From assembly GCF_900129635.1 (NCBI RefSeq), contig NZ_FSRB01000002.1:2894498-2934497 (forward strand): a stretch of 40,000 nucleotides of DNA, in the 5' to 3' direction. This stretch comes from Singulisphaera sp. GP187. Its GTDB lineage: Bacteria; Planctomycetota; Planctomycetia; Isosphaerales; Isosphaeraceae. Made by a program: the position numbers and the translations under genes. Below, piece by piece: positions 15,786 through 35,785 of the stretch (within the stretch, counting starts at the first letter, position 1; each line of letters opens with the position of its first letter). The notes beneath the pieces are model-generated. The model was given only the letters and a program-made list of their open reading frames with translations. It did no database searches and was not told the DNA's origin.

Positions 15786-15795
15786 AGCTGTCACT

Positions 15796-17257: not shown

Positions 17258-17971
17258 ATGGGCCACAAAAGACCGGCCGTTGTCCTCCTCAGCGGCGGAC
17301 TGGACTCGACGACGACATTGGCTCTCGCCCATCGGGACGGTTTCGACCTCTTCGCCCTGAGCTTCCGTTACGGGCAGCGTCATCTTGCCGAGCTCGAGGC
17401 TGCCCGTCGGGTGGCTGAGAGGCTCGGCGTCGTGAAACACATCATCGCGGACATCGACCTGCGTCAGTTCGGAGGCTCCGCCCTGACCTCGGATCTCGAC
17501 GTTCCCAAGGGACGGACACCAAACGAGATGGGTGCTGGGATACCCGTCACGTATGTCCCGGCCAGGAACACGGTCTTCCTTTCCTTCGCCTTGGCCTGGG
17601 CCGAGGTCCTGGGATCGACCGACATCTTCATCGGGGTTAACGCTCTTGATTACAGCGGTTATCCCGACTGCCGTCCGGAATTCATCGCGGCTTTCGAGTC
17701 AATGGCGAACCTAGCCACGAAAATGGGCGTCGAGGGATCGCGGCCTCTCACCATCCACACCCCCCTGATCGCCCTGACCAAGGCCGAGATCATCAGGACG
17801 GGGATCGAGTTGGGTGTGGACTATGCGATGACGGTGACTTGTTACGATCCCTCTCCCGGCGGCGAAGCCTGTGGAGCCTGTGACGCGTGCCTCTTGCGTC
17901 GAAAGGGATTCGAGGAGAACGGTCTGAGCGACCCGGCTCGTTACGTTTCGGAAACCGCGGTGGTCCCATGA
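17258..17971 (+). CDS. queC: 7-cyano-7-deazaguanine (preQ0) synthase
   Basis: PP-loop '[12 protein letters not shown]' and C-terminal Zn-Cys cluster '[20 protein letters not shown]'. ATG at 17258 preceded by AGAGAGG. Confidence 0.95.
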
Positions 17972-18606
17972 GCTACGCAGTCAAGTCCATCTTCTACACG
18001 CTCCAAGGTGAGGGGGCGAACACCGGCCGACCGGCTGTCTTCTGCCGGTTTGCGGGGTGCAACCTCTGGTCAGGACGTGAGGAAGACCGGCTCACCGCGA
18101 AGTGCTCGTTCTGCGACACCGATTTCGTGGGGACGGACGGACCTGGGGGTGGGCGGTTCCACTCGGCCGGGGAGCTGGCACAGGCGGTCCTGGGTTACTG
18201 GCCTAGCCCGCCGGCCGTTGGGCGGCCATTCGTCGTCTGCACGGGCGGTGAACCGCTCTTGCAACTAGACGAAGCCCTCGTCGTGGCCCTGCACGACCAC
18301 GGTTTCGAGATCGCCGTCGAGACCAACGGCACCGTCCGACCGCCCCGCGGACTGGACTGGATCACGGTCAGCCCGAAAGCCGGGTCGGACTTGGTCATTC
18401 AGGCCGGTCAAGAGTTGAAGCTGGTTTTCCCTCAGGCAGGGCTACGGCCGGAGCCCTTCGAGGGGCTGGATTTCCGCCACTTCTTCCTCCAGCCCATGGA
18501 TGGGACGGAGGCCGAGGTTAACACCCGGCTCGCCGTGCGGTACTGCCTTGAGCACCCGTGTTGGAGGTTGAGCCTCCAGACCCACAAGATGCTGGGGATC
18601 CCCTGA
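17968..18606 (+). CDS. queE: 7-carboxy-7-deazaguanine synthase (radical SAM)
   Basis: '[27 protein letters not shown]...(14 aa between Cys)...CSFCDT' is the C-x14-C-x2-C cluster variant. The ATG at 17968 overlaps the queC stop (ATGA). Confidence 0.93.
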
Positions 18607-19448
18607 TGCTTGACCTGACGGGTGGTGTGAATGACACGCGGGGAACGGAGCCGCTGGTCGACGTCCAGAACCACGCCGACGATCGATGCGTCCCCATCGA
18701 CCAGGTCGGGGTGAGCAATCTGCGTTACCCGATCGTGGTGCTTGACCGTGCCAACCAGAAGCAACCGACCGTGGCGAGCCTGTCGATGTCGGTCAACCTG
18801 CCCCACCACTTCAAGGGGACGCACATGAGCCGCTTCGTCGAGGTGCTGAACGAGCACCGCGGTGAGGTGACCATGTTCACGCTTCCCGCGATCCTTGACG
18901 GGCTGAGGTCGCGGCTTCAAGCCGAGAGTGCCCGCATCGAGGTCCGGTTCCCTTACTTCCTGGAACGCGTGGCCCCGGTTAGTGGGGCTCGAGCCCTGAT
19001 GGGTTACGATTGCTCATTCATCGGCGAAGCGAGCGAGGCTGGGGAGGACTTTGTGCTGGGCGTACGGATACCCGTGACCAGCCTCTGCCCGTGCAGCAAG
19101 GCGATCAGCGATTACGGGGCCCACAACCAGCGGGGGCACGTGACGATCGAGGTGCGTGGGGGACAAAACGGTGGGACGGGTCCCGAACTCATCTGGATCG
19201 AGGAACTGGTCGAGGTAGCGGAGCGGTCCGCGTCAGCCCCGGTGTTCGCCCTGCTGAAGCGGGAGGACGAGCGGTTCGTGACGATGCAGGCCTACGACAA
19301 CCCGGCGTTCGTCGAGGACATCGTGCGGAATGCGGCCCTCATCCTCCGCGTGGATGAACGAATCACCTGGTTCCGGGTCCACGCGGAGAATCAGGAAAGC
19401 ATCCATAACCACGATGCGTTCGCCCAGGTCGAGTGGGCCCGAATCTGA
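18606..19448 (+). CDS. folE2: GTP cyclohydrolase FolE2/MptA type (GCYH-IB)
   Basis: 'GTHMSRF' and 'CPCSKAISDYGAHNQRG'. The ATG at 18606 overlaps the queE stop (TGATG). Confidence 0.9.
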   Translation: MLDLTGGVNDTRGTEPLVDVQNHADDRCVPIDQVGVSNLRYPIVVLDRANQKQPTVASLSMSVNLPHHFKGTHMSRFVEVLNEHRGEVTMFTLPAILDGLRSRLQAESARIEVRFPYFLERVAPVSGARALMGYDCSFIGEASEAGEDFVLGVRIPVTSLCPCSKAISDYGAHNQRGHVTIEVRGGQNGGTGPELIWIEELVEVAERSASAPVFALLKREDERFVTMQAYDNPAFVEDIVRNAALILRVDERITWFRVHAENQESIHNHDAFAQVEWARI

Positions 19449-19616
19449 CCGGAATACCCGGGTCTATCGACGGGCAGCGGGAATTGTTCGAAGGAATTCG
19501 TCCATCACGCGGCTTCGCATGGGTAGCAACTCGGAGTTTTTCCAGCATTAATGATGCGAGAACTAGATGCTCCTTGCGACTTCCCGGCCCGATATCGCCT
19601 GGATTGAGCTATCGAG

Positions 19617-19862
19617 ATGACTACGATCAGAGAATCCATGGAGGCCATCGGTTTCGGGATGCCTGCGGTTGTTGCACTCTCCCCTGACCTGAGGCGTGCT
19701 TATCAGCACTTCGCCGAATGGAAGCTGGATACTCATTGCGGGTCCGAGTGCCAGAAGCTGTTAGACCTGGCAACCCCTCTGCTGGAAGCCGCTGACCCGG
19801 CGGCCCGTCCTGAACTTTGGCGAGGAATCGTTTCCGCCATGGCGATCATTTGCGTAGGCTAG
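19617..19862 (+). CDS. Small hypothetical protein (81 aa)
   Basis: ORF with GC3-biased codons ending 15 nt before the TGT-fusion gene. No recognisable motif and no QueD-type His motifs. Confidence 0.4.
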   Translation: MTTIRESMEAIGFGMPAVVALSPDLRRAYQHFAEWKLDTHCGSECQKLLDLATPLLEAADPAARPELWRGIVSAMAIICVG

Positions 19863-19877
19863 GTTTCGAGGAACTGC

Positions 19878-21941
19878 ATGACGCGGATTCTAGTGGTCAC
19901 TTCCTGCACGGGCGAGAAGCTCGTCGAGACCAATGGTGCTCTGACCCTCGATGACTTCCAACAAGGCGGGGACCATCTTGCTCAACGTGAACGGAGCCTT
20001 TGCGAGTTCATGACCCCGGCTGAGACCCTGTACACCGGCCAGCAGCATGTCCGGCTCATGCGAGGAGTTCGGGCCTTTCGAGACAACTCCCGAGAAGTAA
20101 GTCGGAAGGATAACCTAGAACTTTGGGTCATCTCGGCCGGTTACGGCTTGATCCCTGGCGATCGCAAAATTGCCCCGTATGAATGCACGTTCCAGGGGAT
20201 GAGAACCAAGGCCCTTCGGTCGTGGGCAGATCAGCTCGGGGTGCCGGCGGCTATCCGAAAGCTCCTCGCACGGCCCTTCGACCTGGCCTTGATCAACCTG
20301 GGAGATGCCTATCTCGAGGCATGCCACTTGGGCCCGGACGTGACGCTCGGAGGGCCAACCATCTTGTTCTGCGGGACGACGGCGGCCAAACGCTTGCCCC
20401 GCCTGGATCAACTTCGCGTCGTGACGCTCTCCAACCCGCAAGCCAAGCGGTTCTCGTGCGGCTTGGTGGGGCTGAAGGGGGAGGTCTCGGGACGGATCCT
20501 TGAGCGGATGGCCCAGGAACCCGAGGCCATGCTGCGGCAATCCGTCGACCCAATGATCGACGTCCTCGACATTCTGGATGGTTCGGCGTCCCCTGTGAAG
20601 GCCACAAGGGCGAAGGCTAGGGTCAATCCGGTCGTCGATCGGGTGATCACAATCCCCGTTCCGTGGCGGCAGAAGCCACACCGTGATCGGCTCCGCTACT
20701 TCATCCCCGAGTGGGACGACCTGGTTGATCCCGAGTACGATTTCGAAACCGATACCCATTCGGGAGGCTCTGGCGACTGGTCGAATCAGGTCTACGCACA
20801 CCAGATGTATCCCGAGCCCAACTATGACGGGATCCTCGTCTCCAAGGTCGTCGCGGAGAAGAGTAAGAAGAAGAAAGAGCGGATCAACGCCCTCGGCGTC
20901 CATCGGTTTCTCAGAGTCCCGCCCGATTTCCCGGTCATGGGGGACTGCGGGGCTTTCGGGTACATCCAGCAGGAACATCCGCCTTACTCGACCGAGGAGA
21001 TTCTCGATTACTATACCCGCCTTGGCTTCGATTATGGGGTCTCCGTCGACCACCTCATCGTGACTGCGACGACAGCTCAGAAGCAGCATCGTTACGAGTT
21101 GACGATCCATAACGCTGAGGAGTTTCTCAAGGAGCACCGGAAACGACGATTGCCGTGGGAGCCGATCGGTGCCGTTCAGGGCTGGGACGCCAAGAGCTAT
21201 ACCGAAGCAGCCCGCAAGGTCGTCAAGATGGGGTATAATTACATCGCACTAGGCGGTTTGGTCAGGACATCCACATCCGACATCCTGACGATCCTCGAAG
21301 ACGTCCATCACGTCGTGCCGGATGGCGTACAGGTCCACCTCTTCGGGCTCGCCCGGCTAAACGCAATATCCAATTTTGCCAGGCTGGGCGTGAATTCGGT
21401 CGATAGTGCCTCCTACCTCCGCCAGGCATGGATGCGGATCGGCCAGAGCTATCTTTCAGAGCACGGTGCATATGCCGCTCTGAGGATACCCGAGGCTGGC
21501 AAAAGCTTCCGTGCAAAGCAAATGACGGGTCACGCCGAGCTCAGTGAAACCCGCATCCAGAGCCTCGAGCAATCCGCGATTGGGAGCGTCCGAGCCCTTG
21601 CCCGGGAGAAATGCTCGGTCGAGACCTGCCTGGATCATCTGCTCGAATACGATCGCTTCGTCACGAGCGACCGGGTCAATATGACAGATTTGTATCGCCG
21701 AACGCTCACGGACCGCCCCTGGGAACGGTGCCCCTGCAACATCTGTCGCCGATGGGGCGTCGAGGTTATCATCTTCCGGGGCAACAACCGCAACCGACGG
21801 CGGGGCTTCCACAACACCTACGTGTTTTACGATCTGCTTCAGAAAGCCCTGCGAGGGGACTCGGTTGATCTCCAAGACACGACGGCGGAAGAGGCGGAGG
21901 AACTTCCTCTCTTTGCGTCGATCCCGGGGCAAGCAATTTGA
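19878..21941 (+). CDS. Fusion protein: uncharacterised N-terminal domain (about 1-230) + TGT-family (DpdA-like) transglycosylase with Zn-binding subdomain
   Basis: N-terminus: 'ILVVTSCTGEK...LYTGQQHVRL...WVISAGYGLIPGDRKIAPYECTF'. TGT part: 'GDCGAFGYI', 'IALGGLVR', 'VHLFGLARL', 'VNSVDSASY', and Zn motif 'CPCNIC...(21 aa)...H'. ATG at 19878 preceded by GAGGAA. Confidence 0.85.
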   Translation: MTRILVVTSCTGEKLVETNGALTLDDFQQGGDHLAQRERSLCEFMTPAETLYTGQQHVRLMRGVRAFRDNSREVSRKDNLELWVISAGYGLIPGDRKIAPYECTFQGMRTKALRSWADQLGVPAAIRKLLARPFDLALINLGDAYLEACHLGPDVTLGGPTILFCGTTAAKRLPRLDQLRVVTLSNPQAKRFSCGLVGLKGEVSGRILERMAQEPEAMLRQSVDPMIDVLDILDGSASPVKATRAKARVNPVVDRVITIPVPWRQKPHRDRLRYFIPEWDDLVDPEYDFETDTHSGGSGDWSNQVYAHQMYPEPNYDGILVSKVVAEKSKKKKERINALGVHRFLRVPPDFPVMGDCGAFGYIQQEHPPYSTEEILDYYTRLGFDYGVSVDHLIVTATTAQKQHRYELTIHNAEEFLKEHRKRRLPWEPIGAVQGWDAKSYTEAARKVVKMGYNYIALGGLVRTSTSDILTILEDVHHVVPDGVQVHLFGLARLNAISNFARLGVNSVDSASYLRQAWMRIGQSYLSEHGAYAALRIPEAGKSFRAKQMTGHAELSETRIQSLEQSAIGSVRALAREKCSVETCLDHLLEYDRFVTSDRVNMTDLYRRTLTDRPWERCPCNICRRWGVEVIIFRGNNRNRRRGFHNTYVFYDLLQKALRGDSVDLQDTTAEEAEELPLFASIPGQAI

Positions 21942-23158
21942 GATTCGACCTTCACCTTCGAGCCGGCATCAAGCAACAGATCGACGACCTCGCGGAAGAG
22001 ATGTGTCGGTGGGAGGAAACACCCCGCATCGCCGAGGCCGAGGGCCGGAAGATCCGGAATGCCGTAAGTTCGTTTTCGCACTGTACGCAGGTAGGCGACC
22101 TCAGGATCGGCGGCGTCGACGGCTCGGGCGACTATCCGTCGGTCGTCTACGCCGACTCGTTCATCTACGTCACGGTTGCACACGGTACGATTTACGAGTC
22201 CGAATTAACTTGTGGATTGCGAGAGTGCTCTCCTGGCTTCGACCCTGTCATTGACTTCACCTGGCTCCCGGGAGCGGAACTTGCTTGGAGATCAGCCCTG
22301 GACACTGCGTTCGAACGGCTCGCAGGTCGTTCGATTGACGATGTCCTTCAGGACTCGGATTATAGAAAGCTCAAGTCGGATGCGACCGGGCGGGCCCAGC
22401 CGGTCAAGGTTCTGAAGGAGGCTTTGGTCCGGCCTCATGCGTCCGACGCCGGCAACATCGGCATCCAGCTCCGATCGCTGGGCGAGCTGGGGGCGGCCTT
22501 GCGGTTGATCAAGTGCCCGCACCGGCTCGACTACGTCTTGATGGATGGGACGCTCTCGCTACCCTTCGTGACGCGGACCGATCTTAGCCTCTTCCAGGAG
22601 CATCTCAAGCGGCTATGCTGCGTCGAGGCCCGCAGCCGTGGTGTGGGCTTCTTCGCCCTGAGCAAGTCGCACGGGCTCCCCTCGATGGAGCTGATCGAAG
22701 AATTGGCCAGGGAGCACCAGGGGCTAGATCGCGGGAAACCCGCCGAGCACTGGTTCCTCCGGATTCCCACAATTGAACTCGACGGTTGGGAATCGCAACT
22801 CGTTGAAGGTCGCAGGATTCCGCCTCAGGGGGCGATTTCTTATCTGGTCCGGTTCCATCGAACGACGCCAGTACTCCGCCTCGACATGGATCGCGATTAC
22901 TGGATTCGATGCGTGCGTGGAGAAGTGGGTGAGCAGACCCTTGCAAACGAGCAAAGGATCTTCGAGAATCTCGACTATTCCGGCCACGATCAGCGGTGTT
23001 TCGGGTATCCCTACCCTATCAAGGCCGGACATGATCGGGCCTCTTTGACTAAAGCAGAGCGTGTCGCTCTCCGCAAGCAGATCATCGACGCGGCGGTCCG
23101 GGCTGGGATGAAGCGGTCCCTGTTCCGCGACGCTTCTCAGGCGACGGGACACGAATAG
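21938..23158 (+). CDS. NurA-like nuclease domain protein
   Basis: 'IGGVDGSGDY', 'YVLMDGTLSLPF', 'FFALSKSHG', 'YLVRFHRTTPVLRLDM' match my memory of the NurA motif order. The TTG start at 21938 overlaps the upstream stop (TTTGA). Confidence 0.65.
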   Translation: MRFDLHLRAGIKQQIDDLAEEMCRWEETPRIAEAEGRKIRNAVSSFSHCTQVGDLRIGGVDGSGDYPSVVYADSFIYVTVAHGTIYESELTCGLRECSPGFDPVIDFTWLPGAELAWRSALDTAFERLAGRSIDDVLQDSDYRKLKSDATGRAQPVKVLKEALVRPHASDAGNIGIQLRSLGELGAALRLIKCPHRLDYVLMDGTLSLPFVTRTDLSLFQEHLKRLCCVEARSRGVGFFALSKSHGLPSMELIEELAREHQGLDRGKPAEHWFLRIPTIELDGWESQLVEGRRIPPQGAISYLVRFHRTTPVLRLDMDRDYWIRCVRGEVGEQTLANEQRIFENLDYSGHDQRCFGYPYPIKAGHDRASLTKAERVALRKQIIDAAVRAGMKRSLFRDASQATGHE

Positions 23159-23166
23159 GCGGTCCG

Positions 23167-24960
23167 ATGGCAACCCTGGATGAGCTCATCGGATGTCTGG
23201 GCGTGCCGTTCGGCGTCTTGGCCGAGAGTAACACGAATCAATTGACTGTCATCGCCCGCGACACGGACGTTGCCGTGGGCGACCTGTTCCTCCTTCCGTG
23301 CCGCCGCGGCCCTGACCGAATTTACATCTTCCGGACCAACCAGTATGCGAACGTGCTCAATCGCACGATCGAGCTGGACGACGTGGCCCGGAACAAGTTG
23401 ACGATGCCGGACTCGTACCTATCGGAGGATCTCGCCGACGAGAAGCTGATCGAGCTCGTCGGAATGGTGATGGGCTACGCGGAGTGGAACCCGGGGGAGG
23501 ACGACTGGGATTTTCACCGTCCCCGCCGGCTTCCCCAGCACCTCTCGGACGTCTACCTGGTCGATCACGCGAACCCGCAGATCGGTCAGGTCATCCGAAC
23601 GCTACTCCGCAGCCAGCTCGGCGAGTCCGGGATCTACGTAGGCGACCTCCTCGCGGGCGAGCGACCCCTGGCTGGCGTGCCGGTCTACTTGCCCCCGTTC
23701 GCCTTTTCCCACCACCTCGGCATCTTCGGTCGGACCGGCAGCGGCAAGAGCAACCTCATGATGGTCCTGCTCCGCTCGGTGCTGGAGCATAACCGAGGGG
23801 TGGCCTTCGGCACCACCCCCGGCCCTCGCGTCTCGATACTCGCCATCGACCCGCACGACGAGTTCCGCACCTGGCATGCGGCGATCGGCGGTGCCGATGG
23901 GATCCGAGGGATCGTCGAAGGGTATGGTCAGGGCGAGAGGTCCGAGCTAATCGAGCCGTTCTATTACCTGACAGCGAGGGATGCTGGCGGGGCCCTCGAA
24001 CGGCGAGTGCGGCTCTCGCGGGCCGACCTGGTCCCCGACGACCTGGCCAGCGTGATGGAGTTCAGCGAGCAGCAGGTTGCCTTTGCGAACCAGCACTACG
24101 CGACCTTCGGCGAACAGTGGGTGGGCCGGCTGCTGCTAGGCGACCACGGAGAGGCCGCCGGGGGGCATGGTGGGGAGGTGGGGGCGGCCTTCCTGCCGGG
24201 CACGGTGTCCGCCGTCCAGCGGAGGCTCGCTTTCCTCCGTCATGGGCACACGCGGGTCTTCACCCGGTTCGACCCGGAAGCCGGCCTGCCCTACCTCTCC
24301 GACTTGCCAGACATTGTCTGTGCCCTGGAGCGGGGCCGCGTGATCGTCGTCGACACGACTCTGATGTCGGAGATGGAACAGTTCCTGATGACGACGGTCG
24401 TCGCCAGGGTCGTGTTTGGGCTCCGGAGAGCAATCCGATCGGCTGAGACGGTCGAAGACCTGCGGCGAGAGATTCGGCACGCCTTCGACAACGATCCGGA
24501 AGAAGGCCATCTGGGCCAGCAGAGCTTGGCCGACCGGCTGGTCGAGCAACTGGACGGAGGCGATCTGCCGTACTTGGATGGGGCGACCGTCAGGTCTTCG
24601 GAGCACCTCCCGTTCATTAACGTGGTGATCGAGGAGGCCCCCAGCGTCCTGAACCCAGATCGGCTCAGATTTGGAAGCATCTTCCGTGACATCAGCCGGC
24701 AGGGCCGGAAGTTCGGTATCGGGCTGACGGTCGTGAGCCAGCAGGTCAGCGTGATCGACCATGGGGTTCTGACGCAGCTCAACACGGAGCTTACCATGTC
24801 TCTCGGCAACGACCTCGAACGCCGGGAGGCCACACGCAATGCTTCTTCCGACCTGTCCGGGTTCGAGCGAGAGTTGCAGGTGATAGGCAAAGGCCAGGTC
24901 GTAGTTACCGGATCGTACCGGGACATGCCGCTTCCGATCCAGATTCCCAGATTCGAGTGA
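23167..24960 (+). CDS. HerA/FtsK-like (DUF87) ATPase with N-terminal HAS-barrel-like region
   Basis: Walker A 'GIFGRTGSGKSN', Walker B 'INVVIEEAPSVL', 'SRQGRKFGIGLTVVSQQVSVIDHGVLTQLNTELTMSLGN'. Confidence 0.85.
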   Translation: MATLDELIGCLGVPFGVLAESNTNQLTVIARDTDVAVGDLFLLPCRRGPDRIYIFRTNQYANVLNRTIELDDVARNKLTMPDSYLSEDLADEKLIELVGMVMGYAEWNPGEDDWDFHRPRRLPQHLSDVYLVDHANPQIGQVIRTLLRSQLGESGIYVGDLLAGERPLAGVPVYLPPFAFSHHLGIFGRTGSGKSNLMMVLLRSVLEHNRGVAFGTTPGPRVSILAIDPHDEFRTWHAAIGGADGIRGIVEGYGQGERSELIEPFYYLTARDAGGALERRVRLSRADLVPDDLASVMEFSEQQVAFANQHYATFGEQWVGRLLLGDHGEAAGGHGGEVGAAFLPGTVSAVQRRLAFLRHGHTRVFTRFDPEAGLPYLSDLPDIVCALERGRVIVVDTTLMSEMEQFLMTTVVARVVFGLRRAIRSAETVEDLRREIRHAFDNDPEEGHLGQQSLADRLVEQLDGGDLPYLDGATVRSSEHLPFINVVIEEAPSVLNPDRLRFGSIFRDISRQGRKFGIGLTVVSQQVSVIDHGVLTQLNTELTMSLGNDLERREATRNASSDLSGFERELQVIGKGQVVVTGSYRDMPLPIQIPRFE

Positions 24961-25027: not shown

Positions 25028-26860
25028 ATGGCTGGCGAAGCTCAAGGCAAGTTCTACGAGGCACTTACGTACGTTCTGATTGCTGATTCGAAGATTCTCG
25101 GCGGGTCTCAATTGTATTGGGACAAGCCAGTTGCCGGACTGTCAAAGCGGCCTGATTTGGTCATCGGGGCCTCTCTGGATCATATCGATGCAGTTATCAT
25201 GGTGACGCATAGCGGCTCAGCCAAAGAGTCAGAGAAGAAATATTGGAGGAATGCATGTGAATATGTTGAATCAAAGTTGTTTCTTGGAGGCAATCCATTT
25301 GTTCTTAACCTGGTTTACAATGCGGCAATGAAGCCCAACATTAAGGTGGTTTCGAAGTACTCGTTCGACGCGTCTATTATCGTCGAGGACGAAGCATTTG
25401 GCCCAACGCTTCTGACTTGGGCGGGGACTGCAATGGATAGCATTCCTCATGATGGCGACACCATTCAGTACGTTAGGGATCGCTTGCAATGCGATCTTGG
25501 TGCAAATCCCAAGCTGGCTACTGCGGTATCCGATCTTCGGCAGATGCTTATCGATGCGTTGCGAAACGCGAAGTCACTGAAGGCTCCGCTGATTAGTACA
25601 AGAACGCGAAAGGCCTTATCCGCAGATAAGGAGGCCCGCAAGACCGCATTGCGACGAGGCATCGCGAAAGCGATTTTGGTCGGAGATATCGACGCGATTT
25701 GGCAGCCTGCCAATACACAGAGCACATTTGCTGCACCGGATTACTGCAAAACGTTAAATTTTCACAAACCCTCGATCCTTGGAGACGTCGTTTGCGATCA
25801 GGACCTCATGTGGCTTCGGGAGAATCTGAGCCGAGAGTCCGTAAAGGAGATTATAAGCAATTGCCCAATCAAACAGATGCAGGTCTGGGTCGAACCTCTC
25901 AAAAACTTGGCGATCCTCGACCAATCGCAAGCATATGCTGCACAGCACTGGGATGAGTTGACAACTCCCGAGGGTCTCTATCATCATTTGGTAAAAACAA
26001 GTTCACGTGAATACATCAAATCTCATTTCGAGAACCGTTTCATTCCCCCAGGGTGGCTCTTCGACTATCTGCGAGAATTGTACAAGTCACATAAGAAGAG
26101 AAAGACGGCTTGGGGGTGGGCCGCCTTGGTGAAGGATTTGAAATTGGTCGATAAAGACTCCGCCTACCGCAGCTTTGTCTCTGAAGTTACTGGCATTCCA
26201 ATTGAGGAGCTGAGCAATGATTGGAGTGGATTTCGCACCGTCACTTACGCATTGCCAGAGTGGATCATGGGGGATTCCAGGGCCAATTTTAAACTGAGGC
26301 CGACAGATCTGCCTCGGCTAGCTTACACATTCGCACCCAGGCTGGCCTCGGTACCCAAAGCGGCCCTGGAGGAACTTAAGCAGAGGATTCTGGGCTTCTA
26401 CATCGCAAACTACCTGGAGGCAAAGCTGATTCAATACAGGAACTTCGATCCATTACGCATTCTGATCGAGCTCGAGTTGTCTAAAGCCGGCCTGCCGTAC
26501 GAGTTCGTTGAGCGGTTCCCTTCAGCATTTGTTGAGAAGGCCACGGCAGCAGGTGAACGGTTTAACGTTCGAACCGGAGCAACTTCTGTATTGCGTTGCA
26601 ACGACATGCTGATTTGTTGGAGGAGCGTGACCGGTCTCGGCAGAGACCACAAACAGAAAGAGTTGATCGCGAGAGCATTCGCTATCGGGCACACGTGGGG
26701 TGACGGTGGGTTCCGAGCGAGATCGAAGGTCAAGCGGTTGATTCTTGTCTTGGATGGTGATGTCGATGAACCAGACATTAAGGCTCTCTCTCGAGGGGGA
26801 TGGGATGAAATCTTCTACCCCAACGAGCTGGACTCCCTCCCAATATCGATCAACATGTGA
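25028..26860 (+). CDS. Orphan 610-aa protein in a low-GC segment, function unknown
   Basis: Long uninterrupted ORF with ATG start. The first 60 nt are 50% GC by hand count, against 63% for the first 60 nt of the herA-like gene, and A/T-ending codons are frequent. N-terminus 'KRPDLVIG...DAVIMVTHSGSAKESEKK' is only weakly nuclease-like. Confidence 0.75.
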   Translation: MAGEAQGKFYEALTYVLIADSKILGGSQLYWDKPVAGLSKRPDLVIGASLDHIDAVIMVTHSGSAKESEKKYWRNACEYVESKLFLGGNPFVLNLVYNAAMKPNIKVVSKYSFDASIIVEDEAFGPTLLTWAGTAMDSIPHDGDTIQYVRDRLQCDLGANPKLATAVSDLRQMLIDALRNAKSLKAPLISTRTRKALSADKEARKTALRRGIAKAILVGDIDAIWQPANTQSTFAAPDYCKTLNFHKPSILGDVVCDQDLMWLRENLSRESVKEIISNCPIKQMQVWVEPLKNLAILDQSQAYAAQHWDELTTPEGLYHHLVKTSSREYIKSHFENRFIPPGWLFDYLRELYKSHKKRKTAWGWAALVKDLKLVDKDSAYRSFVSEVTGIPIEELSNDWSGFRTVTYALPEWIMGDSRANFKLRPTDLPRLAYTFAPRLASVPKAALEELKQRILGFYIANYLEAKLIQYRNFDPLRILIELELSKAGLPYEFVERFPSAFVEKATAAGERFNVRTGATSVLRCNDMLICWRSVTGLGRDHKQKELIARAFAIGHTWGDGGFRARSKVKRLILVLDGDVDEPDIKALSRGGWDEIFYPNELDSLPISINM

Positions 26861-26993: not shown

Positions 26994-29318
26994 ATGATCT
27001 CGTCGGCGTTGTTTCTGCAAGCCCTCAAGAACGGTACGGGTCGTACCCCGAACGCCGGCCAGAAGCAGGCCGTCGAGGCCCCCGGCGGAGCCGCCCTCTT
27101 CGTAGTCGCCGGGCCCGGAACCGGCAAGACCGCCACACTGACAATGCGGATGCTCAAGTTGATCTTCGTGGACGGGGTCGCCCCGCGAGGGATCCTTGCG
27201 ACCACGTTCACCCGGAAGGCCGCCCAGGAGATCCGATCGAGATTGCTGACCTGGGGGTATGCGGTCCAGGAGGAACTCGTCTCGAACGGCAAACTCAGCA
27301 AGATGGACCGGCTTTGGCTCGAGCGGGTCGACATCAACCAGGTGCGGACGGGCACGATCGACGGCGTCTGCGAGGAGCTTCTTCGCGATTTCCGCGATCC
27401 CGGCACCGACCCGCCGATCCTCGCTGACAAATTCGTCTCGGACACACTGCTCCTACGCCAAGGCCTCTTCCAGTCGGACCGCTACAAGGACGACGACCTC
27501 GACACCTTCCTCTGCAATGTCCGAGGGACGGGCCGCTTCGGCTGGAACATCGGGGCCAAGAACAGCCTCGTCCGCACGATCTGGGACCGACGCCACCACG
27601 ATCAGATGGACTGGGTGAAGTTCGCGGGTTCCGGAACCAGCCAGGAAGAGAAGCAAGCGATCACGCTGCTGGACTCCGCCCTGACCGATTACGCCAAGGA
27701 ACTCGGCGATCGACTCATGGTCGACTTCGCCCAGCTGGAGCAGACCGTGCTCGCTCGCCTGGCGGCGGGCGGCCTCACGGAGTTCGCCGAGGAGTTGAAG
27801 GTCGTCCTCGTGGACGAATACCAGGACACCAACCTGCTCCAGGAGCGACTGTATTTCCAACTGGCCCAGCGTTGCGGCGGTGCCCTGACCGTGGTGGGGG
27901 ATGACGATCAGAGCCTCTACCGGTTCCGCGGTGCGACGGTGGACCTCTTCAGCAACTTCGAGAAGCGGTTCACCTCGACGCTCGGTACGAAGCCGACGAA
28001 AATCTTCCTCAACGAGAATTACCGTTCCTCATCGGTCATCATCGATTTTGTGAACGATTACGCGAGCCTCGATGCCGGCTACCAGGGCGTTCGAGTGGCC
28101 GGGAAGCCCCGACTCGTGAACCCGAAACCGCGTGACGCCGAGATGCCCGTGCTCGGGATGTTCCGGAATTCTATTGAGGACCTCGCGGGCGATCTCGCAC
28201 GTTTCATCCACGCTGTTACTCGCGGAGACGGCTTCGAGGTGAGAGGGCAATGGATCAGGGTTGATCGGGAGGCCTCGGGCGACGTCGGGGACTGTGCCCT
28301 CCTCTGCAGTTCCCCCCAGGAATACGGCAGCGGGACCCCCCTCAAGGAGAGGCTGCCGCTCCTCCTGAGGCGGGAGCTGGGGCAGCTGAACCCGCCCATC
28401 CCCGTGTTCAACCCGCGGGGGCAAGACCTCGCCGTGATTCCTTCAGTCGAGCGGCTCGGGGGGTTGTTGCTCGAGTGCCTCGATCCGGGAGGCCCAATCC
28501 AGTCTGTGATGCGAGGCCTCTCGAACGAGATCCAGGCGACTTTCAACACGTGGCGAGCCAGGACGCTCGCCTGGCTTGACGGGGACAGTAAGCTAGAGCC
28601 GCTCCGTGATTACGCGGTGAACTGGGCCAGCCGAGACGCGGATCGCCCTGGATATGCTTGGCCCAAGAGCACGCCCTGCATCGAGCTGCTCTACGCCCTC
28701 ATCCACTGGATGCCCGAGCTTCACGACGACCCCGAAGGGCAGGTCTACTTGGAGGTCTTCACGAGGCAGCTCGGGGCGGCGGAACAGGTCAGCGGATTCA
28801 AGGCTCGAGTCGTCACCGATCCCGATAAGCCGGATCTAACGCGGACTTCCGTCGGTCATCTACTCCTGTACTTCCTCGCCCCGATCGCCTCCGGTGCGGC
28901 CGGGGTCGACGAGGAGTTGATCGAGAGCTTCCCTCGTGACCGGCTGAACATGCTGTCGATCCACCAGAGCAAGGGACTCGAGTTCCCGTTAGTCATCGTG
29001 GACGTCGGTTCCGACTTCAAGGGTAGATACCCCGCCCAGGCTTTCAAGCGGTTCCCCCGGAATCCCGGCCCGCCGCACAATCTCGAGGACTTGCTGCGGC
29101 CTCACAGCCCCCTGGCGACCCTGAGGCGGAGCGGTCTCGATCGTGCCTTCGACGACCTCTATCGCCAGTATTTTGTGGCATTCAGCCGACCACAGGACGT
29201 GTTGCTCCTGGTCGGCCTGAACGCCACGCGACCCGGTGGTAACGTCGAGAATGTTGCCACCGGACGGGATAGGACCGGCGTGAATCGCTGGTCGCCCCCG
29301 CCGTTTCTGGAGATCTGA
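26994..29318 (+). CDS. UvrD/Rep/PcrA-family SF1 helicase
   Basis: 'AGPGTGKT', 'ATTFTRKAA', 'VDEYQDTN', 'VGDDDQSLYRFRGA', 'NYRSS', 'SIHQSKGLEFPLV'. Confidence 0.95.
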   Translation: MISSALFLQALKNGTGRTPNAGQKQAVEAPGGAALFVVAGPGTGKTATLTMRMLKLIFVDGVAPRGILATTFTRKAAQEIRSRLLTWGYAVQEELVSNGKLSKMDRLWLERVDINQVRTGTIDGVCEELLRDFRDPGTDPPILADKFVSDTLLLRQGLFQSDRYKDDDLDTFLCNVRGTGRFGWNIGAKNSLVRTIWDRRHHDQMDWVKFAGSGTSQEEKQAITLLDSALTDYAKELGDRLMVDFAQLEQTVLARLAAGGLTEFAEELKVVLVDEYQDTNLLQERLYFQLAQRCGGALTVVGDDDQSLYRFRGATVDLFSNFEKRFTSTLGTKPTKIFLNENYRSSSVIIDFVNDYASLDAGYQGVRVAGKPRLVNPKPRDAEMPVLGMFRNSIEDLAGDLARFIHAVTRGDGFEVRGQWIRVDREASGDVGDCALLCSSPQEYGSGTPLKERLPLLLRRELGQLNPPIPVFNPRGQDLAVIPSVERLGGLLLECLDPGGPIQSVMRGLSNEIQATFNTWRARTLAWLDGDSKLEPLRDYAVNWASRDADRPGYAWPKSTPCIELLYALIHWMPELHDDPEGQVYLEVFTRQLGAAEQVSGFKARVVTDPDKPDLTRTSVGHLLLYFLAPIASGAAGVDEELIESFPRDRLNMLSIHQSKGLEFPLVIVDVGSDFKGRYPAQAFKRFPRNPGPPHNLEDLLRPHSPLATLRRSGLDRAFDDLYRQYFVAFSRPQDVLLLVGLNATRPGGNVENVATGRDRTGVNRWSPPPFLEI

Positions 29319-29321
29319 TCG

Positions 29322-30149
29322 ATGCCGCTCTCCGTCCGCCCGCCGATCAACACGCTCCCCTCGTACAGCCTGACCGGCGACCTACTCGGCTTCCTCCGAT
29401 GCGGCCTCCAGTACCGCTACTCCCGGGTGGGCAATCTCCCCCCCTCACACCCCGTGCAGCTCTGGTTCGGCCAGTTCATCCACGCCGTGCTCGAAGAGTC
29501 ATATCGCCAGGTCAAGGAGGCCAAGTGCGAGATGCCGCCCTGGCCGCAAGACAAGCTCGACGGGATCATGGACCGGATCGACCGGCGGTTGGCTGCACGG
29601 AACATCCGCTGCTGGGATGACGCGTCGGAACACCTGGGGCGGCGGCGGGCTACGGCCGCCGTGAACGAGCTGGGTCCGCTCCTCTTCCCGCTGATCAACC
29701 AGGCGGAGGTCCGCGTCCGGGGGGCGAGGAAGCTGCCGGCCGGGCTGGAGGGAGTTGTCGCCAGGGACATCGAGCGTTACGAGATGCTCGGCGTCATCGA
29801 CGTCGTGACCCAGGTCGAACTCTTCAACCCCAAGTTCCGGGGCAACAAGCTCCTGGAGCTGGTCGTCGAGGAGCTCCCCAGCACGCCGCCTCAGGAATTC
29901 GAGGTGATCGTCGACTATAAGGGTATGAAGCGGCCCGATCAGTCGGAGGCAGGGGCCGGACTCTGGGAGATCTACGAGTGGCAGATCCACACCTATGCCC
30001 ACTTGCGGTCGCTGCTCACGACGAAGCCGATCATCGCCGGAGTGCTGGTGTATCTGAATGAATTGGTGCCAACGAAGACCGACTTCTTCGCCCTACGAAG
30101 AGCTCTTAAGCGTACTGTCACACAAACCCTGTTGGAATCCGTCACCTAA
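29322..30149 (+). pseudogene. Cas4/RecB-like PD-(D/E)XK nuclease, 5' portion, interrupted by IS630-family insertion after nt 30108
   Basis: 'FLRCGLQYRY', 'GQFIHAVLEE', 'GVIDVVTQVE', 'EVIVDYKGMK', 'WQIHTYAHL' (QxxxY). Native sequence ends at 30108; the last 13 codons plus the stop are IS-derived. Confidence 0.85.
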
Positions 30150-31738: not shown

Positions 31739-32659
31739 TCAGCCATCCAGGGACTTTTCGATTGACTGAGTGGTGTACATCAGCCTGTGAGTTGAGAAGG
31801 GTAGTGCCGTCTGGCACGCCGCGGCCAGGTTGCAGAGTGCCAGATGGAGACGATCCGCCGGCGAAGGATCGGCGATTGCGATGTCCGGGCGTCCCCAGAG
31901 CCTGCCATCGACGGCGAGCTTGACGTAGGAGCTCGAATCGACCGAGTCGACCCCGTGCCGGAAGAGCTCGGCGACGATATCCGGCTTGCCCAAGCCGAAC
32001 ACGTGCAAGGGCCGGTCACCGATCTCGCCGCGGACCGCATCGACGATCTCCAGGACCGCCTTCAAGTCTCGGGCCCGTGGGACCAGGCCTCCGATTGCCA
32101 CTCCGTCGAATGGGCTCCCGGCGTACTCCCTGGCACAGGTCCGGGCCTTCTTCGCGTCCCAGGCCTGCACGCAGGCGTACAACCTCAGATCTGACCGCCG
32201 TCGGTTCGCGAGGGCCCAATGGGCGTTCGCGATCGTCAGGGATTGGCGGACTTTCGCGTCGGCCGGCTTCGTCCCCGGCGGGATCGGGAAGTCGAGCGTG
32301 AAGGCGACGTCCGCGATCTGCTCCTGCAACTCCAGGGCATCCAGCGGGGTCAAGAGTTGGCTCGTCCCATCGACCATTCGTTCAATGCACCCGAGCCCAT
32401 TCCTCTTCCGAACCTGGGAATCCTTGAACAGGGCGGAGAAGCCGCCCGAATCGACGAGGAGTGGCAAGTTCGGCCGATCGTTCAGGTCCCGGTTCTTGGC
32501 GTAGTGATAGCTGACCATCATCGCCGGGGCCAGGCGAGGGAGATACGGCCTGACGAGATCGTCCAGGGGGTACTCCTCCCCGAACGTGGTGACGGGGACG
32601 TAGGCGGGGAAGCGGATGATGCCGCTTCGGGTCTTCAAATTTCGTGCGGTCGGTTCCAC
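31739..32659 (-). CDS. Stand-alone TGT-family transglycosylase (DpdA-like)
   Basis: 'IIRFPAYVPVTTFG', canonical 'LLVDSGGFSALF', 'GVAIGGLVPR', 'LHVFGLGKP', 'GVDSVDSSSY'. No CxCxxC Zn motif. The GTG start at 32659 overlaps the 3' end of the upstream helicase by 25 nt. Confidence 0.85.
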   Translation of the reverse strand: MEPTARNLKTRSGIIRFPAYVPVTTFGEEYPLDDLVRPYLPRLAPAMMVSYHYAKNRDLNDRPNLPLLVDSGGFSALFKDSQVRKRNGLGCIERMVDGTSQLLTPLDALELQEQIADVAFTLDFPIPPGTKPADAKVRQSLTIANAHWALANRRRSDLRLYACVQAWDAKKARTCAREYAGSPFDGVAIGGLVPRARDLKAVLEIVDAVRGEIGDRPLHVFGLGKPDIVAELFRHGVDSVDSSSYVKLAVDGRLWGRPDIAIADPSPADRLHLALCNLAAACQTALPFSTHRLMYTTQSIEKSLDG

Positions 32660-35151
32660 GGTTCTTGCGATCTCCCGCCCGGGGACGGGGCTTCGAACCA
32701 GAGGTCCCGCAGGTTGATCGGGCCTGACGACCGGTCGTTCTCGGTCGTGTTCACTGCCGCGTAGAGTGATCGATCACCCCGGGCGAGGCGGACGGCCAGG
32801 ACATGCTTGCACGTCTGGCCTTTCCTAGCGTCCGGGCAATCGCAAACCCAGTCCGATCCCTGCTGCCTCACCACGTGCGGTTCGAGCCCTCCCCAGACGT
32901 GATACGTACCCTCGCCGGCGGGTCGGAGCTTGAGGTCCAGGGAACGGCGGAGTCGATAGGGATCGATCCCGTGACTCTTCCATTCCGGGGCTTCCGGAAA
33001 TGTCGGTGCCGACGCACGGGATTCACGGTACCAGTAGGCGGATCGCGTCCGGACGAGATCGACGGCGGCTTCCGTCCATTTCCGGGCACGACGCAAGGAC
33101 ATCCCCGGCATCGCGGCCAGGGTTTCCGGTTCCGCCTGGGCGAGAGATTCCAGATCGGTGATCTCCGCCAACTTGAGCCGGCGGGCCCAGGCGGGTCCCA
33201 GGCCCGGGATCAGGGTCAGCGTGATGACCTCCTCGTCGAGACCGGCCTGCACCATCCGTTGAAGAGCGTGAATCTTCTCCGCCAAGCTCACCTCCTGTTC
33301 GATCGACGGGGAGTTCTGGTCGTCCTCCGTCTTCTCAATCCGCTGGATGTCGGCCATCGCGGTGAGTAGGCGTTCGAGAGACTCCTTCAGACGGAGTATC
33401 TCGAACGGGTAACAACCGGAGAGTTCCGCCACCTGTTCCGCGTCCCCGGTGCGTGTCCAGGCTCGGCCCACGCTCGCCATCTTCAAAGCCGCCAGGAGCC
33501 GTTTCCCCCTAACCCCGAGGCGTTGTTCCAGATCGGATCGGGCCTTGCCCAAGAATTGCGAGTTCTCACGAGCGAGGGCGTCCGCCAAGTCGTCGAGCTC
33601 CTCGAAATCGACCGGCAGCACCGGCTCGCAGTCGGAACTCGATGCGGCGATGAGCAAGAGGTCCAGGAAGGATGCCGCGGGTTCGTCCTCCAGGGCGGCC
33701 TGGAAGAGCTGGACGGTCGCCGGTTCCAGGAGGTGGCGTGCCGCGATCCGTCCCAGTCGCGTGGGAAGGAGCCGGATCTCCCCGGAACCCGGCTCGCGAT
33801 CCGTGTCGTCGCGAACCAGATCCGCCTCTTGCATCTGCCAGAGGAGTTTGTTGAGGTCGGGCAATCGGTCCTGGTGGGCCGCGAGCGATTGCCCGAAGGT
33901 GCGGCTCAATTGTCCGGCGGTCCGGGAGAGCCCGCTACTGAGCTCCGCCAAGATCTGCTCCGCGAGGTACCGTGGTTGGCACAGGCCCGAACGGACCGGC
34001 TCGAAGATTCCCCGAGAGTAGCCGTCCGCCGCCCGGTCCCACGTGGGCGTCAAGAGGACCGCCTCGCCAGACGGGTCAAGGCCGGGCCTGCCCGCACGGC
34101 CGACCCTCTGCCAGACCTGGTTGGTGGGGAGCGGCCGGAACTCGCCGCCATCGAAGAACTGCACGTCGTAGAGCACGACCTGTCGGACCGGCAGATTCAA
34201 CCCCATCTCGAGGGTGGATGTCGCCACGAGCACGTCTAACGTCCCACGTCGGAATCCGTCCTCGATCTCCTTCCGAGAGGCATGGTTCAGGCCGGCGTGA
34301 TGGTGTCGGGCTCGAAGACCCTTTTCTGCCAAGAACCGACTCAACCCTTCGGCCCGCCGCCGGCTCTGGACGAAGACCAGGCTCTTGCCACCCTGTTCCA
34401 CGCACCGGCATACCTCGGCCCAGAGTAGCTCCGGCTTCTCGTCGGCCTTGCGGAAGCGGACGATCCGCCAGTCGATCGGGATTGGCCGCCAGTCGGAGGT
34501 AAACTCCACGCCCTGGAGCCACGATGCCAGCTCCACCCGGTTACCCAGGGTCGCGGAAAGTCCCAAGACCTGGACGAACGGGTTGAGACGCTGGAATCGC
34601 GAGATGGCCCCCTCCAGGCGGGCACCACGTTGCCGATCGCCCAGGAGGTGAATCTCGTCCACGACCAGCAGGTCCACCTCCGGAATCCAGCCCCAGTGGG
34701 ACCGCCAGGATCGCGTGCAGGCATCCAGTCGCTCCGGGGTCATGACCAGCAACCGAGCGTCGTAGTAGCTGACTGGGTAGGGCCGTTTGGAAGTCCCGTA
34801 CTCACCCGTGAAGACGCCCACCGGTGAAGGGTCGAATCGATCCCGCCAGCGATCCATCAATTCGGTGGCCAGGGCCCGCAAAGGCGTGAGGTAAATCGCC
34901 CTCCTGCCCCGCCCCAGCACCTGGGCGATGGATTGTTCGGCCAGCCAGGTCTTCCCGCTTCCGGTCGGCATCTGGAGGACGCAGCTGAACCCCGAATCGA
35001 TCAGCCCGCGTTCCAAGATGGCGGCTTGGGGTGGAGTCAGTGACAAGAATAATCCTCCAGGCCTTGAGGTAGCCGAATGAGTTCCGAAGGCGTCTTGATG
35101 CGGGGCCGAACGTTGGGGGCCGATGAAAGCATAACCGCCGAAATCGGTCAA
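32635..35151 (-). CDS. Ski2/Hel308-like DEAD/DEAH-box SF2 helicase with HhH region and C-terminal SWIM zinc finger
   Basis: 'QMPTGSGKTW', 'LTPLRALA', 'VVDEIHLLG', 'GLSATLGN', 'QRVGRAGRPG'. SWIM finger 'WVCDCPDARKGQTCKHVLAV'. There is no in-frame ATG before motif I. The likely start is TTG at 35046 (GGAGGA 6 nt upstream), not the TTG at 35151. Confidence 0.9.
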   Translation of the reverse strand: MTDFGGYAFIGPQRSAPHQDAFGTHSATSRPGGLFLSLTPPQAAILERGLIDSGFSCVLQMPTGSGKTWLAEQSIAQVLGRGRRAIYLTPLRALATELMDRWRDRFDPSPVGVFTGEYGTSKRPYPVSYYDARLLVMTPERLDACTRSWRSHWGWIPEVDLLVVDEIHLLGDRQRGARLEGAISRFQRLNPFVQVLGLSATLGNRVELASWLQGVEFTSDWRPIPIDWRIVRFRKADEKPELLWAEVCRCVEQGGKSLVFVQSRRRAEGLSRFLAEKGLRARHHHAGLNHASRKEIEDGFRRGTLDVLVATSTLEMGLNLPVRQVVLYDVQFFDGGEFRPLPTNQVWQRVGRAGRPGLDPSGEAVLLTPTWDRAADGYSRGIFEPVRSGLCQPRYLAEQILAELSSGLSRTAGQLSRTFGQSLAAHQDRLPDLNKLLWQMQEADLVRDDTDREPGSGEIRLLPTRLGRIAARHLLEPATVQLFQAALEDEPAASFLDLLLIAASSSDCEPVLPVDFEELDDLADALARENSQFLGKARSDLEQRLGVRGKRLLAALKMASVGRAWTRTGDAEQVAELSGCYPFEILRLKESLERLLTAMADIQRIEKTEDDQNSPSIEQEVSLAEKIHALQRMVQAGLDEEVITLTLIPGLGPAWARRLKLAEITDLESLAQAEPETLAAMPGMSLRRARKWTEAAVDLVRTRSAYWYRESRASAPTFPEAPEWKSHGIDPYRLRRSLDLKLRPAGEGTYHVWGGLEPHVVRQQGSDWVCDCPDARKGQTCKHVLAVRLARGDRSLYAAVNTTENDRSSGPINLRDLWFEAPSPGGRSQEPWNRPHEI

Positions 35152-35215: not shown

Positions 35216-35785
35216 GTGGACGCGAACGATCGGGCTGCCGAGAATCTCCGGTACTTGCTCTTTACTCGCGGGGAGCCTCGCGCGCTCTGGGCGGATCGAG
35301 TGACGGAGTGGGCTGGCTGCGACCGTCGCCGTGCCATGCGACTCCTCCGTTCTGGCCGGTTCACACCGAGCGAGCAAGACCGGATCACCAGGGTTTGCGA
35401 AGTCTCGACCGAGGAGTTGCGGTTCGGACGACTCGTCCCCGACCGGCCGGATTTGATTCTCCAAGAGAACCTTCGCTATTTGCTGGACATCCTGGAACAC
35501 GGCGAGCAGAAGCGTCTGGCGGGACTGCTTGAGATGGAGACGGGTACGGTCTCTCGGTGGCGGGGGGGCAAGCAACTCCCCGAGCGGAAGACACAGGCAG
35601 CATTGGCCCGCTACTTCGGTCTCCCCCCAGGGACGGACCTCCAGGCCGACCCGGTCTTCCTGTCCTACCCGCCGGCCGACGAACGTCAGAGACGACATTG
35701 GCTCCGGGAGCGGATCGAGTCCATCTCGCCGGACCTACTTGGGGAACTCTTCCCCGCCCTGGAACGACTCCTCGAGGACGAATGA
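35216..35785 (+). CDS. Tandem-HTH (two XRE-like units) putative regulator
   Basis: Internal duplication 'ENLRYLLFTRGEPRALWADRVTEWAG...' and 'ENLRYLLDILEHGEQKRLAGLLEMETGTVSRWRGG'. GTG at 35216 with GGAGG 5 nt upstream; the ORF-track start at 35165 is TTG inside the putative -35 box. Confidence 0.7.
   Translation: MDANDRAAENLRYLLFTRGEPRALWADRVTEWAGCDRRRAMRLLRSGRFTPSEQDRITRVCEVSTEELRFGRLVPDRPDLILQENLRYLLDILEHGEQKRLAGLLEMETGTVSRWRGGKQLPERKTQAALARYFGLPPGTDLQADPVFLSYPPADERQRRHWLRERIESISPDLLGELFPALERLLEDE

Follow-up and report, generated by a model that had tools for sequence, protein, structure and literature searches.

Genes of the Singulisphaera cluster

We analysed a window of 40,000 nucleotides (nt) from the planctomycete Singulisphaera sp. 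GP187 (contig NZ_FSRB01000002.1) and focused on a gene cluster that we read as a candidate 7-deazaguanine restriction-modification (R-M) system. A closely spaced run of plus-strand genes extends over 12.3-31.2 kb, from an 830-amino-acid (aa) helicase-like protein to an unknown 335-aa protein. At its core stands a triad of genes for a 687-aa fusion protein ending in a transglycosylase (DpdA) part, a 406-aa NurA-like protein, and a 597-aa HerA ATPase. The run begins with the helicase-like protein, two unknowns, a PAD_porph-like protein, QueC, a radical-SAM protein, and FolE2; then come the triad, X610, UvrD, a PD-(D/E)XK nuclease, and the 335-aa protein. Genes for a second TGT-like protein (TGT2, 306 aa) and a DEAD/HHH/SWIM helicase follow on the minus strand, and DEAD2 lies beyond them on the plus strand (Table 1).

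The fusion stop codon TGA (21939-21941) and the NurA-like start codon TTG (21938-21940) overlap by 4 nt (TTGA, 21938-21941), and the NurA-like open reading frame (ORF) ends in TAG at 23156-23158, 8 nt before the HerA ATG at 23167. Both distances agree exactly with those reported in an earlier note on this DNA, which had proposed that HerA replaces DpdB, the ATPase partner of DpdA. Judged from its homologs, the TTG at 21938 is the true NurA-like start, as all 120 best homologs are ~406 aa long and cover 100% of the query, and ATG or GTG is found at the aligned position in other loci. Co-translation of the fusion, NurA, and HerA would be expected from the geometry of this overlap and gap. A promoter and terminator scan of 16.9-32 kb revealed nothing above chance.

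The DpdA part of the fusion scored 444.7 bits against NCBIfam NF041059 (cut-off 200) and matched both the PADLOC DpdA model (2.7e-122) and the Salmonella DpdA structure 7UI4 (E = 1.2e-80). Residues D356, D391, and D509 align with Asp95, Asp130, and Asp256 of the Salmonella enzyme, which were shown or proposed to be catalytic by Gedara et al., and the zinc motif CPCNIC...H is aligned too. By these matches, the C-terminal 390 residues are an orthologue-level DpdA, a predicted DNA-guanine transglycosylase. The position of Salmonella His181 is occupied by Gln434, and the alignments place Gln in TGT2 and in Z. mobilis TGT as well; this residue may bear on base specificity. The N-terminus of the fusion matched PADLOC DpdC (1.1e-12 over residues 1-106), covering only model positions 1-104 of 319, and Pfam DUF6884 at 30.5 bits (threshold 30), and it carries the DUF6884 motifs CxxxK (residues 10-14) and xSAxxG (as ISAGYG, 85-90). 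The N-terminal half, not recognised in the earlier note, is probably DpdC-like, with conversion of dPreQ0 to dADG as its predicted activity.

Homologs of QueC and FolE2 lie upstream of the fusion in many loci (FolE2 directly upstream), and radical-SAM homologs (61-69% identity) adjoin QueC and the fusion in other loci. QueD (PTPS) was not found among the preQ0 genes of the window, whose 430-nt gap at 19449-19877 contains just one 81-aa ORF (19617-19862), in which no motif was recognised; in a related locus (L001), QueD sits between QueC and FolE2. The absence of DpdB asserted in the earlier note held for every cluster protein tested: the 18 proteins encoded in 9.3-39.3 kb gave no match to DpdB, DndB, or ParB with PADLOC, nor did those among them that were also scanned with Pfam or, for 10 proteins, with NCBIfam, and the Pfam lists of loci L001 and L002 contained no DpdB/ParB-like protein. 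DpdD, G, H, I, and K were likewise absent from the PADLOC-scanned cluster proteins, and DpdE, DpdF, and DpdJ gave just weak generic helicase matches that scored under the HamB and BrxH models. Salmonella DpdA, the closest characterised DpdA, requires the DpdB ATPase in vitro (PMC10164549).

The NurA-like ORF is 100% identical to SAMN05444166_7299. Its product reached E = 0.0042 and 17 bits against Pfam NurA (PF09376), below the gathering score of 21, and 30 of 42 close family members matched this model at E <= 0.01 (best 1e-7). PADLOC, NCBIfam, and PHROGs yielded no match, one homolog already bears the RefSeq label "DNA double-strand break repair nuclease NurA", and a NurA-family profile matched no solved NurA among PDB sequences, so that fold comparison was used in its place. 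With an AlphaFold2 (AF2) model (pLDDT 90.4, pTM 0.89) as query, Foldseek PDB ranks 1-14 were taken exclusively by NurA structures or by chains in the NurA position of HerA-NurA-type complexes (probability 1.00, E 8.6e-9 to 2.9e-5), including 2ygk (8.6e-9), 9x1n_G, 8wfd_G (TdpAB, 3e-8), 3tal, 1zup, and 7f6d_G. Argonaute PIWI domains ranked after the NurA chains, for which TM-scores were modest (0.35-0.55); the highest query-normalised value was obtained for 8wfd_G (TMq 0.47, TMt 0.51). The model contains a helical insertion of ~80 residues between the strands bearing E96 and D203.

A profile search of 1.84 billion protein representatives detected just 123 relatives of the NurA-like protein. The distant full-length relatives P0157 (29% identity, E = 2e-39) and P0178 come from contigs carrying archaeal markers, where their genes share nurA-herA-mre11-rad50 operons with those for DUF87, Metallophos (Mre11-like), and Rad50 zinc-hook proteins. 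D61 (GVDGSG), D203 (DGTLS), K243 (SKSH), and Y357 (GYPYP) vary little or not at all and recur in these archaeal relatives. With SsoNurA D58, E116, D133, K202, and Y298 as the reference set, they were assigned to D58, D133, K202, and Y298 from their place in motifs and secondary structure, without superposition. In the comparison with PF09376 and the catalytic residues that the earlier note had recommended, D61 and D203 were kept, the score of the 406-aa protein lay under threshold, and the glutamate was tentative. The 406-aa protein is, going by its modelled RNase H-like NurA fold and its kin, a genuine but divergent NurA, as the earlier note had suspected, and the alignments indicate that its nuclease residues are under purifying selection. 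Viral contigs contained no relative, and a phage-borne origin was dropped. We also dropped the idea that the relative P0186 is a DpdA-NurA Rosetta-stone fusion; it is a dpdCA-nurA deletion derivative.

The HerA assignment of the earlier note was borne out by PF01935 (DUF87, the HerA central domain; 4e-15, 57 bits, cut-off 23.2) and PADLOC HerA (8e-22), and the best PDB sequence matches were archaeal HerA (9x1l, 5e-14; 4d2i). Both motifs it had read are present, namely Walker A GRTGSGKSN (188-196) and Walker B VVIEEA (486-491), together with an arginine-finger-like RQGRKFG (511-517). The protein scored far under the NCBIfam equivalog cut-offs for double-strand-break-repair HerA (NF040819; 55 vs 970 bits) and anti-phage HerA (NF042944; 36 vs 850 bits), and by these scores it is a HerA family member that is an equivalog of neither named subgroup. 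Over its whole length, it shares 40% identity with the HerA encoded on an archaeal-type nurA-herA-mre11-rad50 contig. Because both NurA (E = 2e-39) and HerA (40% identity) are related to such pairs, the pair looks like an archaeal-type module acquired as one unit.

Table 1. Features of the gene cluster, with positions counted from the first letter of the window
Feature	Position	Strand	Evidence
QueC (preQ0 synthase)	17258..17971	+	Pfam QueC, E 3.9e-75
Radical-SAM protein, probable QueE	17887..18606	+	Pfam Radical_SAM, E 1.4e-5, 25.8 bits vs cut-off 29.5 (below threshold)
FolE2 (GTP cyclohydrolase I type 2)	18558..19448	+	Pfam GCHY-1, E 3.9e-93
Fusion of a probable DpdC-like part (DUF6884, ~residues 1-270) and DpdA (residues 272-658), 687 aa	19878..21941	+	NCBIfam, PADLOC, and 7UI4 matches
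Divergent NurA-family nuclease, 406 aa	21938..23158	+	Pfam (sub-threshold), fold, relatives, motifs
HerA-family hexameric ATPase/translocase, 597 aa	23167..24960	+	Pfam DUF87, PADLOC HerA, PDB sequence matches
X610, 610 aa, no assigned family	25028..26860	+	Conserved position after HerA
UvrD-family helicase	26994..29318	+	Pfam UvrD-helicase, 5e-46
PD-(D/E)XK nuclease paired with UvrD	29322..30149	+	Pfam PDDEXK_1, 1.9e-10
TGT2, 306 aa, without Zn subdomain	31739..32659	-	Pfam TGT, 9.8e-24; NCBIfam tgt_general, 77.6 bits vs cut-off 47.6
DEAD/DEAH helicase with HHH and SWIM domains	32635..35151	-	Pfam DEAD, 5.7e-27; Helicase_C, HHH_5, SWIM
DEAD2, second DEAD/DEAH helicase	35557..38148	+	Pfam DEAD, 1.4e-21; Helicase_C

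Conserved gene set and mobile context

We compared the cluster with 33 NurA-anchored loci (L001-L033) from at least nine phyla, and, independently of NurA anchoring, with 80 fusion-anchored metagenome loci, of which the 62 with at least 600 nt downstream were counted. HerA lies 3' of NurA in 30 of the 33 NurA-anchored loci, 22 of the 33 have the fusion in the same cluster, mostly immediately upstream of NurA, and NurA directly follows the fusion in 51 of the 62 fusion-anchored loci. Thus, the triad does recur in other genomes, the lack of which the earlier note had named as a sign of chance. Where the genes are adjacent, most genome loci show gaps of -11 to +16 nt between fusion and NurA and of -4 to +19 nt between NurA and HerA. 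The hosts belong to Proteobacteria, Myxococcota, Cyanobacteria, Verrucomicrobiota, Acidobacteriota, Chloroflexota, Bacillota, Planctomycetota, and Deinococcota. Around the triad, a wider set of 9-10 genes is conserved that also includes the preQ0 genes, X610, UvrD with its PD-(D/E)XK nuclease, TGT2 with the DEAD/SWIM helicase, and DEAD2; the earlier note had described neither this set nor the second TGT-like gene. The gene identities, the motifs, and the conservation of the gene set are direct observations.

Two complete cyanobacterial plasmids (a conjugative plasmid of Nostoc NIES-3756 and one of Picosynechococcus PCC 73109) carry the whole set. There, dpdCA is on the opposite strand, 14-20 kb away at the distant end of the cluster and beside the DEAD-TGT2-DEAD block, and we therefore dropped the idea that cyanobacterial loci are devoid of the fusion. 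The gene order is also broken in L004, L026, and L085. On the Nostoc plasmid, a LlaJI-type restriction pair is inserted between nurA and herA (L039 21351-24677), on the Picosynechococcus plasmid PIN/RHH and AbiE toxin-antitoxin genes occur among herA, X610, and uvrD (L040 17107-22084), and unexplained nurA-herA insertions of 0.2-1.2 kb were seen in L008 (11221-12458), L005, L018, L003, and L006. One plasmid carrying the system has it beside ArdA. In three unrelated loci, the gene immediately upstream of the system encodes a MazG-type nucleotide pyrophosphohydrolase, which is absent from the window; it adjoins the fusion in L002 (7430-7897) and nurA in L039 (19569-19886) and L040 (13714-13938). 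Decayed loci comprised a nurA-herA deletion fusion (L028 1865-3472), a truncated nurA (L031 899-1569), and a split uvrD (L007 8874-9921); together with P0186, they represent the turnover typical of defence genes.

In L094, L100, L105, and L115, the fusion was found with no NurA-HerA nearby. In L094 (9983-14176), its only partners are QueE and QueC, and this apparent orphan cassette is surrounded by metabolic genes on a contig of 300 kb. In the L100 type (L100, L105, and L115), the fusion is accompanied by an ATPase-like protein of 829 aa, another TGT-like gene (7636-8535 in L100), and several unknowns. Both are possibly further undescribed DpdB-less architectures.

X610 follows HerA in many loci at just 23-32% identity, and its GC content is 0.505, against 0.59-0.66 in its neighbours (background 0.61). 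No match was obtained in Pfam, NCBIfam, PADLOC, or PHROGs, and its AF2 model (pLDDT 86) gave no significant PDB fold match (best, the LmuA nuclease, E = 0.014). An N-terminal E...PD...SxK pattern and the weak LmuA/Cap4-like Foldseek match hint at a restriction-endonuclease-like domain. X610 may be a quickly exchanged specificity or sensor subunit. UvrD is present in most loci as two divergent types (28-30% or 43-68% identity), and the PD-(D/E)XK nuclease always lies directly 3' of UvrD in other loci. In an alignment with Z. mobilis TGT, TGT2 keeps the three active-site Asp residues (VDSGGF, TLDF, and DSVDS) and lacks a C-terminal Zn subdomain. The first 25 nt of its gene overlap the 3' end of the DEAD/SWIM helicase gene, and the pair is kept in at least 14 loci; PADLOC matches of this helicase are generic (HamB/BrxHI/DpdF-like). 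DEAD2 occurs in many loci and adjoins the TGT2 block. TGT2 may serve as a reader, as a partner in a heterodimer, or in base excision.

Upstream of QueC, four co-directional genes (12296-16945, plus strand) encode the 830-aa helicase-like protein (weak DrmD/DpdE similarity), unknowns of 211 and 173 aa, and a 300-aa PAD_porph/agmatine-deiminase-like protein, none of which was seen in any related locus. The PAD_porph-like protein, a guanidino- or amidino-modifying type of enzyme, might change the deazaguanine side chain. The window flanks (3088-4716, 5473-6558, 8783-9361, 10181-11023, and 38232-39332) encode an rve-family integrase, a WYL/WCX-HTH regulator, a second HTH_11/PafC-type HTH protein, a Cas4-like PD-(D/E)XK nuclease, and an ATP-dependent DNA ligase (38232-39332). 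None of these is conserved with the system elsewhere, and together they suggest a mobile or defence-island setting.

Candidate roles of the NurA-HerA pair

On balance, the genes at 17258-38148 probably form one horizontally mobile, Dpd-like 7-deazaguanine R-M (defence) system without DpdB. Within it, we favour NurA-HerA as the restriction motor and nuclease over a substitute for DpdB. The following account of modification chemistry, complexes, discrimination between self and non-self, and the defence role itself is inferred. FolE2, QueE, and QueC, with a QueD encoded elsewhere, would supply preQ0, which the DpdA domain would exchange for guanine in host DNA, as expected from homology and from established Dpd biochemistry (PMC10164549). 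The fused DpdC-like domain would probably turn the inserted preQ0 into the amide (dADG) or handle DNA. By analogy, a NurA dimer on a HerA hexamer would probably thread double-stranded DNA at the expense of ATP and degrade it, acting on DNA devoid of the deazaguanine mark as TdpAB does for phosphorothioate. UvrD/PD-(D/E)XK, X610, and TGT2 with the DEAD helicases may provide sensing, entry, or back-up functions. With dpdA overlapping nurA and herA starting 8 nt after nurA, modification and restriction would stay co-expressed.

The central proposal of the earlier note was that HerA, with or without NurA, replaces DpdB, so that ATP-driven DNA opening or translocation enables DpdA and NurA serves as a scaffold or secondary effector. 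It agrees with the absence of DpdB, with the orthologue-level match of the DpdA domain to a DpdB-dependent Salmonella enzyme, and with the finding that dpdA, nurA, and herA are the tightest-spaced genes of the system in most loci. Nevertheless, we consider it unlikely in the form stated. The restriction role is favoured because the nuclease residues of NurA, needless in a scaffold, are under purifying selection and base exchange needs no nuclease, because the fusion also exists without NurA-HerA in four loci, and because the dpdA-nurA coupling is lost on the cyanobacterial plasmids. Moreover, UvrD and the two DEAD helicases are equally conserved ATPases available to DpdA, and among the top structural matches is TdpAB (8wfd), a precedent for a HerA/NurA-like pair next to one modification gene. 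HerA-type ring translocases are also known as end-processing motors (PMC3326311). The secondary option of the earlier note, NurA as the restriction effector, is the reading favoured here.

Several points weigh against a restriction role for the pair. Since Salmonella DpdA depends on DpdB, modification may call for one of the ATPases encoded in the cluster, and among these HerA has the tightest linkage to dpdA. For the catalytic glutamate of NurA, E96 is a tentative candidate only; this residue is invariant in the family and unaligned in the archaeal relatives. As a rule, HerA-NurA requires DNA ends. The main effector may be other than NurA, as the PD-(D/E)XK protein and possibly X610 are also nuclease candidates. 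In addition, the fusion loci without NurA-HerA are few, and a partner ATPase could be encoded elsewhere.

A rather unlikely reading is that the fusion, NurA, and HerA form an integrated complex resembling a type I R-M enzyme. HerA threading would supply the DNA distortion otherwise provided by DpdB and feed DpdA, which modifies hemimodified or self DNA, and unmodified DNA would go to NurA. A single translocating machine would in this manner couple base exchange on self DNA to cleavage, both the restriction and the DpdB-substitute roles would then be true, and TGT2 with the DEAD helicase might be a second transglycosylase-type reader or a base-excision restriction activity. The start/stop overlap and conserved order suggest stoichiometric co-production, DpdB is absent, and the identities to the window proteins co-vary across loci (r ~0.58-0.63). 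However, this correlation is what shared phylogeny alone gives, and the gene order is broken on the cyanobacterial plasmids and in L004, L026, and L085. If true, it would be the first ring-translocase-driven, transglycosylase-based R-M enzyme.

We regard a function outside defence as improbable. In that case, the genes would serve plasmid or island self-modification (anti-restriction), or a repair cassette in which NurA-HerA, UvrD/PD-(D/E)XK, and the ligase process nicks left by base exchange. NurA-HerA and UvrD-type nuclease pairs are classical repair modules, an ATP-dependent DNA ligase is encoded nearby, and the system is carried on plasmids, in one case beside ArdA. However, the ligase is not conserved in other loci, and no Mre11-Rad50 genes were found in any bacterial locus of the neighbourhood survey. 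The patchy spread over many phyla, the toxin-antitoxin and restriction insertions, the fast-evolving X610, and the absence from viral contigs fit defence islands better. Finally, that a housekeeping NurA-HerA pair came to lie beside a DpdA gene by chance can practically be dismissed: bacterial NurA-HerA repair pairs do exist (7f6d), but the tight spacing is conserved across loci, the neighbourhood statistics (51/62 and 22/33 loci, nine phyla) refute it, and the NurA family is small and context-specific.

Comparison with known systems

No description of a DpdA/TGT operon with NurA/HerA was found in the full-text literature searched, in agreement with the earlier note, which was aware of none; a mention in older papers is possible. 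The sole published architecture with HerA/FtsK and TGT that we found is the BREX-related BRC (PglZ, DUF6079, STAND NTPase, DUF4007, HerA/FtsK, GNAT, and TGT), for which a 7-deazaguanine self-mark without DpdB has been proposed (PMC12839542). Only HerA and TGT are common to BRC and the window: Pfam and PADLOC revealed no PglZ, BrxC-like DUF6079, STAND, DUF4007, or GNAT among the window proteins, and BRC has no NurA, DpdC fusion, UvrD, or DEAD set. HerA-effector pairs (Sir2-HerA and DUF4297-HerA) likewise combine a HerA-family ATPase with an effector in a defence context, and PADLOC HerA models match the window HerA. However, these are abortive infection systems of two genes that rely on NADase or other effectors and include no gene for DNA modification, and the window HerA is nearer to archaeal repair HerA.

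The archaeal and bacterial NurA-HerA end-resection complex shares with the window pair its fold, the Asp, Lys, and Tyr residues at presumed catalytic positions, and the nurA-then-herA order with a short gap, and there is direct sequence kinship with the pairs of nurA-herA-mre11-rad50 operons. In contrast, the window pair has no Mre11/Rad50 and sits in a predicted DNA-modification cluster of a type found on mobile elements; its NurA carries the ~80-residue insertion and falls under the Pfam threshold, and its HerA falls under the equivalog cut-offs.

TdpABC, a phosphorothioate system, also has a HerA-like/NurA-like pair beside a DNA-modification gene, and its TdpAB chain 8wfd_G ranks with the best structural hits to the window NurA. 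In the primary TdpABC paper, TdpAB is said to restrict unmodified DNA. The two systems differ in that the TdpABC mark is a backbone sulfur and not a base exchange, and in that TdpABC comprises three genes in thermophiles, compared with 9-10 genes here. Modification in TdpABC needs tdpC only (PMC12914056). The window cluster lacks a gene of the TdpC type, its proteins showed no match to TdpA or TdpB at the sequence level, and its NurA-HerA pair is nearer by sequence to archaeal repair HerA and NurA than to TdpAB. The likeness to TdpABC would be one of logic only, and the cluster would be the second case, after TdpAB, of HerA-NurA recruited to read DNA modification.

To our knowledge, dpdA-K is the only architecture of bacterial 7-deazaguanine DNA modification that has been studied experimentally, and its restriction half is still not understood. 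With this Dpd system (Salmonella Montevideo and others), the window shares the DpdA orthologue, a probable DpdC-type DUF6884 domain, linked preQ0 genes, a helicase-rich multi-gene cluster, and a presumed logic of modifying self and restricting foreign DNA. It differs in having no DpdB, in the fusion of the DpdC-like part to DpdA, and in the absence of DpdD-K as such. Its effector set consists instead of NurA-HerA, UvrD/PD-(D/E)XK, X610, and TGT2 with two DEAD helicases. By its gene content, the cluster does not fit the canonical Dpd definition, which includes DpdB and DpdD-K. The GATOR-GC survey of dpd islands demanded dpdA and dpdB and therefore could not find a DpdB-less type, and defence annotators (PADLOC 2.0 and surveys requiring dpdAB) overlook this system. 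X610 and the Zn-less TGT paralogue with its helicase could reveal how base modification is sensed, and the system offers a natural test of the minimal needs of DpdA for DNA modification. Together, these comparisons suggest that the cluster represents a second, widespread architecture beside dpdA-K, DpdB-less, with a DpdC::DpdA fusion and a NurA-HerA-centred effector set, in at least nine phyla and on plasmids.

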